From NCBI GenBank assembly GCA_964406605.1, contig CAYOSF010000001.1:212303-276302 (forward strand): a stretch of DNA of 64,000 nt. Direction: 5' to 3'. Position numbers and translations under genes: made by a program. Shown here piece by piece: positions 52,267-55,502 of this stretch (the stretch's first letter is position 1; the number at the start of each line of letters is the position of its first letter). Source of the DNA: an uncultured Dehalococcoidia bacterium (GTDB lineage: Bacteria; Chloroflexota; Dehalococcoidia; DSTF01; RBG-16-68-14). The notes beneath the pieces are model-generated. The model searched no databases, was not told the DNA's origin, and saw nothing but the letters and a program-made list of their open reading frames with translations.

Positions 52267-53745
52267 GTGACCGCGAGACACTTGGTGGCCCTCGCTGCTC
52301 TGGCACTCACGCCTGCCGTGATCGTTGCGTCGGCTTCGTTGTGGCTGGGACCCGCCGCGGCGACCGGGGGCAACGCCATCGAGTCGCCGGACACCGCGGG
52401 CTTCGTCGGCTTCTTCAGCTCGGTGGCGCTCGACGAGATGGGCTACCCGGTCGTCAGCTACTACGACATGACGAATGGTGATCTGAAGGTCCTGCACTGC
52501 AACGATGCGAATTGCAGCGGCGGCGACGAGACCATCACCTCGCTCGACACGGACGGTGACGTGGGCCAGTACACCTCGCTGGCACTGGACGGGAGCGGCT
52601 ACCCGGTCGTCAGCTACTACGATGCCAGCAATGGAGACCTGAAGATGCTGCACTGCAACGACCCGGATTGCAGCGGCGGCGACGAGAGCGTCACCTCGCC
52701 CGACACAGGCGGTGACGTGGGCCAGTACACCTCGCTGGCGCTGGACGGGAACGGAAACCCGGTCGTCAGCTACTGGGACGTCGCGAACGGTGACCTGAGG
52801 GTGCTGCACTGCAACGACCCGGACTGCAGCGGCGGAGACGAGAGCACTACGTCGCCCGACACCGTGGGCGTTGTCGGCTGCTTCACCTCGCTAGAGCTGG
52901 ACGCGAGCGGCCACCCAGTCGTCATCTACCGAGACGGCAGCAATGTGGATCTGAAGGTTCTGCACTGCGACGATCCGAATTGCGGCAGCGGTGGCGACAG
53001 CATCACGTCGCCCGATACTGTCGGCTACGTCGGCTACTCGGGCTCACTTGAGCTGGACGCGAGCGGCAACCCGGTGGCCAGCTACTACGACGGCACCAAC
53101 GGCGACCTCAAACTGATGCACTGCAACGACCCGAACTGCAGCGGAGACGATGAGAGCATCGTCTCACCGGACACAGGAGGGGACGTGGGCATGTTCACCT
53201 CGCTGGCGCTGGACGCGAGCGGCAACCCGGTCGTGGGCTACTACGACGCCACGAACGAGGATCTGAAACTGCTCCACTGCGGCGACGCCGATTGCACCTC
53301 ATCCAACACGCTGGTCTCACCGCACTCGGCCGGCTCCGTGGGCCAGGATACGTCTCTCACCCTGGATGGGAGCGGCAACCCAGTGGTTACGTATCATGAC
53401 GCGCCTGACTTCGATCTGTGGGTCCTTCATTGCGGCAACCCTACCTGCACGAAGGAGGCAGCCACACCCAGCCCGACCCCAACGTCCACCCCGACGCCGG
53501 CACCCGGCGGCGACGTGAACTGCGACGGCGGCGTGAACAGCATCGATGCGGCCCTTGTCCTCCAGTATGACGCCGCCGTTATCGGTTCGCTGCCCTGCCA
53601 AGAGGCCGCCGATGCAAGCCGGGACGGCGTCATCAATAGCATCGATGCCGCACTCATCCTGCAGCTTGAGGCGGGACTGATACCATCCCTGCCGTCGCAG
53701 AGAGGCGGGTCGACCGTGGCCGGCGAAATGCAGCGACGACCATGA
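52267..53745 (+). CDS. secreted repeat protein with a signal peptide, seven ~52-aa Cys-paired repeats (a putative beta-propeller), a Pro/Thr linker and a C-terminal dockerin domain
   Basis: An AAGGAGG Shine-Dalgarno lies 6 nt before a GTG start ([26 protein letters not shown]). The repeat unit is [52 protein letters not shown], and the DNA periodicity is about 156 bp across roughly 52375-53455. A [11 protein letters not shown] linker follows. The end of the protein carries two dockerin-like Ca-binding segments, [18 protein letters not shown] and [18 protein letters not shown]. Confidence 0.7.
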   Translation: [492 protein letters not shown]

Positions 53746-55502
53746 CCAGCGAGGCCGGTCAGCAAGCGGCCTGGAGAAGGCGTTTTCTCGCGCCGGAGAT
53801 ATCCGTGCCCTTGTGGGCGCGGGACGAGCCGGACCGCTTGCTCTACTCGTCGAACGAGAGCGGCAAATGGGAGCTCTACGCCTGGGATCACAGGACGGAT
53901 AGCCACCGGCAGGTCACTGATCGGCCTGAGGGTACCCATCTTGGACGGCTCGACCCCGCGGGCGAGCGGATCTGGTGGTTCGACGATGAAAGGGGAAGCG
54001 AGTTCGGGCGGTGGGTGGTCGAACCATTCGAGGGAGGCGAACGCCGGACCGTCGAATTGCCGGCTGCCTACGAGGCCGGGCTGGCCATCGCGAGCTCCTT
54101 TGCCGTCGTCGGCTTGTCGAATAGTGACGGCAGCACAGTTCATCTCGTTCGAGAGGGCGGGGCTCCTCGAACGCTGTACCAGCATCGGGAGGACGCCCAC
54201 GTGGTTGGGTTATCCCGGGACGAGTCGCTCCTGTGCATCAATCACTCGGAGCACGGCGATAGCCGTCATCCGGCACTGCGGATGCTGAACCTGGACGGCG
54301 AGGCCGTCGCGGAACTCTGGGACGGTCCGGGCAAAGGGCTCTGGGGCGTCCGTTGGTCGCCGGTTGCCGGCGATCAGCGGATACTGATCATGCACGAGCG
54401 GCAGGGTCTGCGTCGCCCGCTCGTATGGACACCCAGCAGCGACGAGGTGCTCGAACCCCATATAGACCTGCCCGGAGAGGTGGCGGCCGGCTGGTACCCG
54501 GACGCGTCGGCCCTGCTGCTGACTCACCGTTACCGCGGTCGAGACGAACTTTATCGCCTGGACTTGGAGAACGGCGGCACGGAGCAGCTCAGGATCGAGC
54601 CGGGTGCTGCTGCCTCTGCCAGGGTGCGACCCGACGGTGAGATCTGGTACTCGTGGTCGAGCTCCGCGGCACCGCCGGAAATGCGGGCGGGCGCCCGCGT
54701 CCTGCTCCACCCGCCGGGCGAGCCTGCGCCAGGAGGTGTTCGCTACTCCGATCATGACGTCGATGGAGTGCACTTCTTCCTGGCGGAGCCGGGGCGGCCC
54801 AGACCGCATCCGACCATCTTCGTCGTCCACGGCGGTCCCGCGGGTGTGGACTGGGACGCGTTCTCGCCGCGCAACCAGGCCTGGGTCGACCACGGCTTCG
54901 CAGTGGTGCTGGTCAACTACCGGGGGAGCGGCGGGTACGGGCAGGCATGGCGCGATGCGCTGGAGGGCAACCCCGGCCTTACGGAGCTGGAGGACATCGA
55001 CAAGGTGCACGACTGGGTCGTTGCCAATGGGATGGCCGAGCGGGAGCGGGTTGTTCTTGCCGGAGCGTCCTGGGGCGGGTACCTGACGCTGCTGGGCTTG
55101 GGCACCCAGCCCGAGCGGTGGTCGCTCGGGATCGCCGTCGTGCCGGTGGCCGACTACGTGGCGGCCTTCGAGGACGAGATGGAGCCGCTGAAGGCCTTCG
55201 ACCGGGCGCTGTTCGGCGGCTCGCCGGAAGAGATCCCGGACGTGTACAAGGAGCGGTCGCCCATCACGTACGTGGACCGCGTGCGGGTGCCGGTGCTGAT
55301 CCTCGCGGGTGAGAACGATCCCCGCTGCCCGGTCCGCCAGATCGATAACTACATCGCAAGGCTGGCGGAACTGGGCAAGCCGCACGAGGTCTATCGGTAC
55401 GAGGCCGGCCACGGTTCGCTGGTGATGGAGGAGCGGATCCGGCAGGTGGAAGTGCAGCTTTCCTTCGCCGCGCGGCATCTCGGTACGCGGCCGCCGCAAT
55501 AG
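53742..55502 (+). CDS. S9-family serine peptidase (prolyl oligopeptidase / acylaminoacyl-peptidase-like) with an N-terminal beta-propeller
   Basis: The protein contains GASWGG (G-x-S-x-G) and shows a downstream Asp and a His (EAGHGS). It overlaps the upstream gene's stop as ATGA. No signal peptide is evident. Confidence 0.85.
   Translation: MTSEAGQQAAWRRRFLAPEISVPLWARDEPDRLLYSSNESGKWELYAWDHRTDSHRQVTDRPEGTHLGRLDPAGERIWWFDDERGSEFGRWVVEPFEGGERRTVELPAAYEAGLAIASSFAVVGLSNSDGSTVHLVREGGAPRTLYQHREDAHVVGLSRDESLLCINHSEHGDSRHPALRMLNLDGEAVAELWDGPGKGLWGVRWSPVAGDQRILIMHERQGLRRPLVWTPSSDEVLEPHIDLPGEVAAGWYPDASALLLTHRYRGRDELYRLDLENGGTEQLRIEPGAAASARVRPDGEIWYSWSSSAAPPEMRAGARVLLHPPGEPAPGGVRYSDHDVDGVHFFLAEPGRPRPHPTIFVVHGGPAGVDWDAFSPRNQAWVDHGFAVVLVNYRGSGGYGQAWRDALEGNPGLTELEDIDKVHDWVVANGMAERERVVLAGASWGGYLTLLGLGTQPERWSLGIAVVPVADYVAAFEDEMEPLKAFDRALFGGSPEEIPDVYKERSPITYVDRVRVPVLILAGENDPRCPVRQIDNYIARLAELGKPHEVYRYEAGHGSLVMEERIRQVEVQLSFAARHLGTRPPQ

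Follow-up and report, generated by a model that had tools for sequence, protein, structure and literature searches.

The DNA analysed here, referred to below as the window, is a stretch of 64,000 nucleotides from an uncultured Dehalococcoidia bacterium of the Chloroflexota (GenBank assembly GCA_964406605.1, contig CAYOSF010000001.1, positions 212,303 to 276,302 of the forward strand). We focused on two genes of its plus strand. The first (52267..53745, with its stop codon at 53743-53745) encodes, according to the open reading frame (ORF) listing and its translation, a 492-amino acid (aa) product in which a signal-peptide-like N-terminus is followed by seven tandem Cys-paired repeats that are predicted to form a beta-propeller, by a Pro/Thr-rich linker and by a type-I-like dockerin. 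The second (53742..55502) encodes a 586-aa serine peptidase of the S9 family, acylaminoacyl-peptidase-like, and the stop codon of the first gene overlaps its start codon in the sequence ATGA (53742..53745, plus strand).

Architecture of the propeller-dockerin protein

Six nucleotides before the GTG codon at 52267 we read a Shine-Dalgarno-like AAGGAGG on the plus strand (52254..52260), and because of this site and its spacing we prefer 52267 as the start over the GTG at 52225, the earliest one in frame. An identical protein is present in the public protein collection (P0001), and the contig of the window was also found in the Logan assembly of sequencing run SRR14802572. Residues 1-32 (52267..52362, plus strand) resemble a signal peptide on a heuristic reading of n-, h- and c-regions: the n-region is basic (R4, H5), the hydrophobic core has a mean Kyte-Doolittle value of 2.6 over 15 residues, and a small-x-small candidate cleavage site, A30-A31-A32|T33, after residue 32 lies just ahead of the first propeller strand. 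Homologs carry AxA-like sites at the equivalent place, directly before the first strand. Export by the Sec pathway is predicted from this N-terminus, over which the confidence of the AlphaFold2 (AF2) model (predicted local distance difference test, pLDDT) is low.

The body of the protein (residues 35-397; 52369..53457, plus strand) is made of seven blades, at residues 35-86, 87-138, 139-190, 191-242, 243-294, 295-346 and 346-397, each of which closes with a CX4C loop, that is, two Cys separated by four residues. The register is very regular, with His-Cys anchors at residues 77, 129, 181, 233, 285, 337 and 388 (spacings of 52, 52, 52, 52, 52 and 51), and at the DNA level Tandem Repeats Finder reported a period of 156 nt with 5.3 copies, 77% matches and a score of 850. 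Blades are on average 60% identical to one another in pairwise comparison. We aligned the protein with 35 homologs (36 sequences in total) and found the CX4C motif in all seven blades, with 12 of these Cys invariant and the last two conserved to 90% or more. In 135 canonical repeat units, both Cys are 100% conserved, while G14, S18, L19, L21, D22, G25, P27, V28, Y31, L39 and H43 reach at least 90%, and the same positions are conserved in every blade.

The AF2 model (mean pLDDT 89.5, predicted TM-score 0.77, pLDDT of about 96 over residues 40-390) contains 28 strands that fall into seven sets of four, and behind them a disordered linker and a dockerin with three helices. The strands form seven four-stranded antiparallel sheets around a central axis, which is the arrangement of a seven-bladed propeller, and on the model each repeat unit runs strand-loop-strand-loop-strand-loop-strand, with the CX4C motif sitting in the loop between the last strand of each blade and the opening strand of the blade after it. 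In a protein predicted to be extracytoplasmic, this Cys pair is most likely a small disulfide clamp at every blade junction, since both Cys are invariant in the 135 units while the flanking His and Asp vary, also in the units from Legionella. Zinc binding by an HCxDxxC motif was considered as well and rejected because the His is often replaced by R or K and the Asp by N, G or S, whereas the Cys pair is kept. A seventeenth Cys, C205 (about 52879-52881), is unpaired; it falls in the region of the first strand of blade 4 (VGCFTSL) and recurs in the closest ortholog (P0018; VGCFSSL).

Behind the propeller, a Pro/Thr-rich linker (residues 396-415; 53452..53511, plus strand), with pLDDT below 50 at residues 402-411, leads to the dockerin (residues 415-476; 53509..53694, plus strand). 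Pfam assigns this module to Dockerin_1 (PF00404; E 3.4e-9, 37.2 bits against a cut-off of 22.9), and dockerins of the PDB match the C-terminus with E down to 1e-5, the Clostridial ones over about 62 residues. Like cellulosomal type I dockerins, it is C-terminal behind a Pro/Thr linker, aligns over 62 residues with the Clostridium thermocellum dockerin 4fl4_A and has a duplicated F-hand: in both 12-residue Ca-binding loops (416-427 and 449-460) the ligand residues D, N or S stand at positions 1, 3, 5, 9 and 12 (D, S, D, N and D in the second loop), and a helix follows each (425-435 and 458-468 in the AF2 model). It differs from them in its Chloroflexota host, which offers no cellulosome context, in its passenger, a propeller and not a glycoside hydrolase, and in a conserved Cys pair, C419/C444, which probably forms an intradomain disulfide. 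To our knowledge, this feature has not been described.

The preliminary description of this locus, made from the sequence alone, had claimed a signal peptide, seven tandem repeats of about 52 aa with a conserved Cys pair, a propeller-like fold to be checked with AlphaFold, and a Pro/Thr linker followed by two dockerin Ca-binding segments; the N-terminal features, the anchor register, the AF2 model and the Pfam and PDB matches agree with all four.

Several observations concern the dockerin and its relatives. The Cys pair, which occupies position 4 of the first loop and an 'LPC' between the two segments, was seen in 10 of the 10 dockerins of this subtype that we read; the dockerins of another homolog (P0009) have no Cys, and that of P0074 has Cys at different positions. 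At one locus (L020, 6400-12049), a Pro/Thr linker and a Cys-containing dockerin of this subtype form the end of each of three adjacent genes; these genes encode an HExxH metzincin-like protein (6400-7809), a propeller protein (P0118, 8001-9575) and a protein with a domain of no assigned family (10733-12049). The middle domain of the metzincin-like protein was considered as a cohesin, which found no support (no Pfam Cohesin at E<=1, and phmmer against the PDB gave noise only). At a second locus (L021, 2-499), a dockerin 67% identical to that of the window stands on a non-propeller passenger, 1.7 kb upstream of an 82%-identical peptidase ortholog, and comparison with the window suggests swapping of passengers on a conserved linker-dockerin tail at this locus. 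Because several differently built proteins carry the same dockerin subtype behind Pro/Thr linkers, this Cys-containing dockerin looks like a shared attachment tag in this lineage.

Run SRR14802572, in which the contig of the window was seen, also holds two further propeller-dockerin proteins, P0074 (61% identical) and P0091 (66% identical), at loci L002 and L019 with unrelated neighbours (cytochrome b at one; radical SAM and GH18 at the other); we take them to be paralogs within a single genome or else orthologs from relatives that co-occur there. A database search with the dockerin alone gave 91 matches, nearly all of them short fragments carrying PF00404, and was uninformative about architectures. 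Within the 64-kb window we found no second dockerin.

The repeat family and the proposed role of the propeller

An exhaustive search of 1.84 billion representatives returned 16,528 proteins at E<=1e-3, where each protein represents a cluster at 50% identity; 10,823 of them reached E<=1e-10 and 4,117 reached E<=1e-30. A word-indexed search gave 3,385 matches at E<=1e-3 among 8,000 candidates scored. Sources of the family include Chloroflexota/Dehalococcoidia, Legionella, Gammaproteobacteria, Actinomycetota, Acidimicrobiia, Gaiellaceae, Brocadiaceae (anammox bacteria) and Bathyarchaeia, and among the best 150 of the 16,528 matches the proteins reach at least 7,237 aa. The number of repeats varies, with 7 or 8 in close relatives, 14 in Legionella and other proteins, and 14 or more within the family. 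In homologs, the module is fused to dockerin, RTX, SLH, PKD, Calx-beta, cadherin-like, fn3, TSP3, cupredoxin, 'flexitail' and 'choice-of-anchor L' domains, and these partner domains are exclusively extracellular.

This LHCNDxNC repeat family has no dedicated model in Pfam or NCBIfam and no curated name. NCBIfam contained no model for the propeller in the five members tested. The only Pfam match of the propeller is BNR_4 (PF15892), with a whole-protein score of 29.6-29.9 bits against a cut-off of 27.3, and the same weak match is found in 34 of the 36 aligned family members, with a best E of 4e-13. The score is built from repeated weak matches to one 23-position segment (profile positions 225-247), and no single stretch passes. 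The preliminary description had stated that the repeat matches no common propeller family, which holds in Pfam and NCBIfam except for this marginal BNR_4 score; the novelty that it implied was overstated, since thousands of family members are present in public data.

We also searched the PDB for solved propellers related by sequence, with the single protein, with a full-length profile and with a single-repeat profile (42 units), and found none. At E<=10, the two profile searches (full-length alignment A1 and single-repeat alignment A3) returned only dockerins or noise, and thus gave at this threshold no sequence link to the propeller of CylK, to the PLL lectins or to any other solved propeller.

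At the level of structure, Foldseek placed the seven-bladed PLL/PHL lectins of Photorhabdus in all of the top 21 positions for the AF2 model (E 4e-16 to 4e-13, target TM-score of about 0.78), and the next class followed at 7.5e-10. Another structure ranking listed, below its top match, the lectin BP39L and virginiamycin B lyase (both 30.5), integrin alpha-IIb (29.2), a PLL lectin (28.9), GH145 (28.1) and PL42 (28.0). The PLL family, by which we mean Photorhabdus PLL, PLL2-5 and PHL, Burkholderia BP39L and Chromobacterium CV39L, binds sugars between blades of highly similar W-motifs (PMC6943638), and the uniform blades of the window protein resemble such tandem-repeat propeller lectins. There are also differences: in addition to the lack of any PLL/PHL chain at E<=10 with either profile, the PLL lectins have neither a CX4C in each blade nor a dockerin, the disulfides described for PLL and PHL connect monomers to one another (PMC6943638), and the sugar-stacking Trp of PLL sites (PMC6943638) has no conserved counterpart in the window repeat, whose sole near-invariant aromatic residue is Tyr 31 (90% of units).

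Two groups of propeller enzymes were compared in the same way. CylK, a cyanobacterial Friedel-Crafts alkylating enzyme with a C-terminal beta-propeller (PDB 7RON), has blade-bridging Ca sites in the loops that connect its blades, and its active site depends on an N-terminal beta-roll that binds Ca and packs against the propeller (PMC8916777). In the window protein this beta-roll is absent and the propeller begins at residue 35, after the signal peptide; there is no detectable sequence homology between the two propellers, and CylK has no dockerin and no Cys pair in each blade. BNR_4 holds the seven-bladed PL42/GH145 enzymes, together with related ulvan lyases, and is characterised by the Asp-box SxDxGxTW (PMC8377490). 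This motif is absent from the repeat consensus of the 135 units, which has a C-N-D-P-N-C loop instead, and the blades of the window protein are far more uniform than those of BNR_4 enzymes.

Taking these results together, we propose, with a probability of about 0.6, that the gene encodes an extracellular, disulfide-clamped, multivalent binding propeller that is held at the cell surface by its dockerin, and that the adjacent peptidase is unrelated to it. In this proposal, a Sec-exported protein would fold its seven near-identical 52-residue blades into the propeller body, the CX4C pairs would clamp the blade junctions as disulfides, and the flexible Pro/Thr linker would connect this body to the C-terminal type-I-like dockerin with its two intact Ca loops. 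The propeller would be a multivalent module that binds ligands or serves in adhesion, with glycans or cell-surface polymers as its probable targets. Through the dockerin, it would be attached non-covalently to a partner located either on the surface of the cell or on a different secreted protein. Propeller enzymes typically have blade-specific catalytic residues. We favour a binding module over a single-site enzyme because all seven blades keep the same conserved residues, because the copy number varies across the family and because the module is fused to many surface-anchoring or adhesin domains and occurs in giant adhesin-like proteins.

A number of points weigh against this proposal. Dockerins classically carry enzymes, as in cellulosomes. 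The hydrophobic segment at the N-terminus spans about 23 residues and could be a signal anchor that is not cleaved, the Trp conserved in PLL lectin sites is missing from the 135 units, and Pfam detected no Cohesin domain, nor an SLH domain, in about 30 large ORFs of the window, with no cohesin found next to homologs either. The sole Pfam similarity of the propeller, BNR_4, includes lyases (PMC8377490).

Some of these points would fit a propeller that is itself a dockerin-borne extracellular enzyme acting on an outside polymer, a distant relative of the BNR_4-type lyases and hydrolases (PL42/GH145, PL24, PL25) or of the Vgb or CylK type. The BNR_4 score does exceed its whole-protein cut-off in this protein and recurs through the family, BNR_4 includes the seven-bladed FoRham1 (PL42; PMC8377490), and enzymes are the usual cargo of dockerins; we nevertheless regard an enzymatic role as unlikely, given that the score arises from one short segment, that the Asp-box is lacking, that no blade-specific polar cluster is visible among blades sharing the same conserved residues, that repeat number ranges from 7 or 8 to 14 or more, including giant proteins, and that no PDB propeller enzyme was matched by the profiles at E<=10.

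In a further alternative, the N-terminus would be an uncleaved membrane anchor and the dockerin-like module a Ca-stabilised cap without a cohesin partner, which would make the protein a membrane-tethered surface receptor outside any cohesin-dockerin assembly. Many non-cellulosomal dockerins reportedly have no known partner (Peer et al. 2009). The length of the hydrophobic stretch and the lack of a detected cohesin speak for this arrangement, which the AxA-type sites directly before the first strand, in the window protein and its homologs alike, and the recurrence of one dockerin subtype behind Pro/Thr linkers on several differently built proteins of the lineage render distinctly improbable; the cohesin search, in addition, covered 64 kb of the genome only.

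The S9 peptidase gene and the genomic surroundings

The product of the downstream gene (53742..55502, plus strand) matches Peptidase_S9 of Pfam (PF00326) with E 1.4e-42, and its best PDB relatives are acylamino-acid-releasing enzymes (E 2e-35). Compared with the S9C acylaminoacyl peptidase of Aeropyrum pernix (APH), which is related at this level through the catalytic domain, it has nearly the same length (586 versus 582 aa), the Ser, Asp and His motifs (GASWGG at 441, ENDPRC at 523 and AGHGS at 554) and no signal peptide. Its N-terminus is not hydrophobic, and between the ATG at 53742 and the in-frame stop that precedes it there is no alternative start, so that no longer, secreted form exists. 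In Chloroflexota, this peptidase family is tightly conserved, with 62-87% identity and constant length. We predict an unrelated, conserved cytoplasmic enzyme of the acylaminoacyl-peptidase type.

The origin of the overlap became apparent in the locus of the closest propeller ortholog (L018, 73% identical), where the order of genes is the same as in the window (FeS-CCG protein, propeller-dockerin, S9 peptidase). There, the propeller gene stops at a TAG right behind the dockerin and is followed by a spacer of 97 nt and by a peptidase gene with its own AAGGAG site. In the window, this TAG reads CAG and about 55 nt of the spacer are deleted, so that translation adds 16 residues before it ends at the TGA that forms the overlap with the peptidase start. 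This C-terminal tail (53695..53742, plus strand), translated former intergenic DNA, has no counterpart in homologs, whose dockerins end at ...SLP(P/A). On this alignment, the ATGA overlap is a recent, lineage-specific accident, and the tail represents a small natural case of stop-codon loss creating a gene overlap. No recognisable ribosome-binding site precedes the peptidase start in the window; in this genome the two genes are probably co-transcribed, and the peptidase is probably translated by coupling, without a shared function.

The preliminary description had correctly noted the overlap with an S9-family gene and the cytoplasmic look of the peptidase, for which it had asked that alternative starts be checked, and had further suggested that the two genes are a functional pair. 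Such a pair, co-translated through the ATGA with, for example, the propeller presenting substrates to the peptidase, could draw on the overlap, on the missing ribosome-binding site and on the gene order kept in L018, and we consider it highly improbable because synteny contradicts it: the genes are separate in L018, different genes (CGGC-domain, YdjM or Mg-chelatase-like) lie upstream of the peptidase orthologs that are 82%, 71% and 70% identical, an S9 gene adjoins the propeller gene in none of 15 genome loci (L008 alone has one in the vicinity, at a distance of about 6 kb and 27% identical), comparison of 20 propeller loci, all against all, revealed no conserved neighbour, and the two products are predicted to reside in different compartments. 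Adjacency of propeller and S9 genes is not conserved beyond close relatives, and 18 other propeller loci are without it.

The window has a G+C content of about 63-70%, and the best matches of both the propeller and the peptidase proteins come from metagenome-assembled genomes of Chloroflexota/Dehalococcoidia. Other genes in the neighbourhood are of housekeeping or metabolic character (carbamoyl-phosphate synthase, aconitase, PFOR, Der, TreT, amidase, Fe-S/CCG oxidoreductase, SerRS, DHODH and others). A scan for promoters and terminators gave no sites, and the Rfam scan of the window found just two tRNAs, both located elsewhere in it.

Downstream of the peptidase, the region 55511-62531 shows a mutasome-like arrangement. 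Pfam identified on the minus strand a dnaE2-type polymerase gene (55511-59002; PHP and DNA_pol3_alpha) and an ImuB-like gene of the IMS family (61359-62531); between them, on the plus strand, lie an ICMT-family methyltransferase gene (59925-60605, Pfam) and an AbrB/PIN-like toxin-antitoxin pair (58993-59343 and 59327-59767), the latter judged from the translations. The locus of the 82%-identical peptidase ortholog keeps the downstream dnaE2. Within the dnaE2-type gene of the window we observed two in-frame insertions of about 100-130 nt, at about 58040-58165 and 56190-56295, edged by inverted repeats (CTGAGCGAAGCGAAG ... CTTCG..CTTCGCTCAG) and translated as '..HSERSEESGP..' and '..HPERSEGSSP..'. 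These insertions look like palindromic elements of the miniature inverted-repeat transposable element (MITE) or repetitive extragenic palindromic (REP) kind that sit in a coding region and leave the frame intact.

Significance of the repeat and of the dockerin subtype

Taken alone, the gene is one more member of a family with thousands of entries named 'hypothetical protein', in which the fold and the dockerin are both familiar, and the link to the peptidase, part of the original interest of this locus, does not hold. What makes the family noteworthy is its spread over more than 16,000 clusters in several phyla, yet with no dedicated model and no solved relative by sequence, together with a regular design in which a CX4C loop at each blade junction is the distinctive feature. 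The occurrence of the Cys-containing dockerin subtype on unrelated passengers in one lineage is noteworthy as well, and hints at surface display beyond cellulosomes.

These features allow a wider and clearly tentative reading, to which we give little weight at present. According to it, the LHCNDxNC repeat would be a disulfide-clamped, possibly Ca-bound lectin or adhesin propeller distinct from BNR, PLL and FG-GAP propellers, and the Cys-bridged dockerin would be a general C-terminal tag that, in this lineage, docks secreted propellers, a metzincin-like protease and other proteins onto a cohesin-like surface scaffold. If this were true, Chloroflexota would possess a non-cellulosomal cohesin-dockerin display system, and the repeat would rank among the largest unnamed extracellular modules of prokaryotes. 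Should the binding specificity of the propeller and the partner of its dockerin be found, annotation would come within reach for a large part of metagenomic dark matter.

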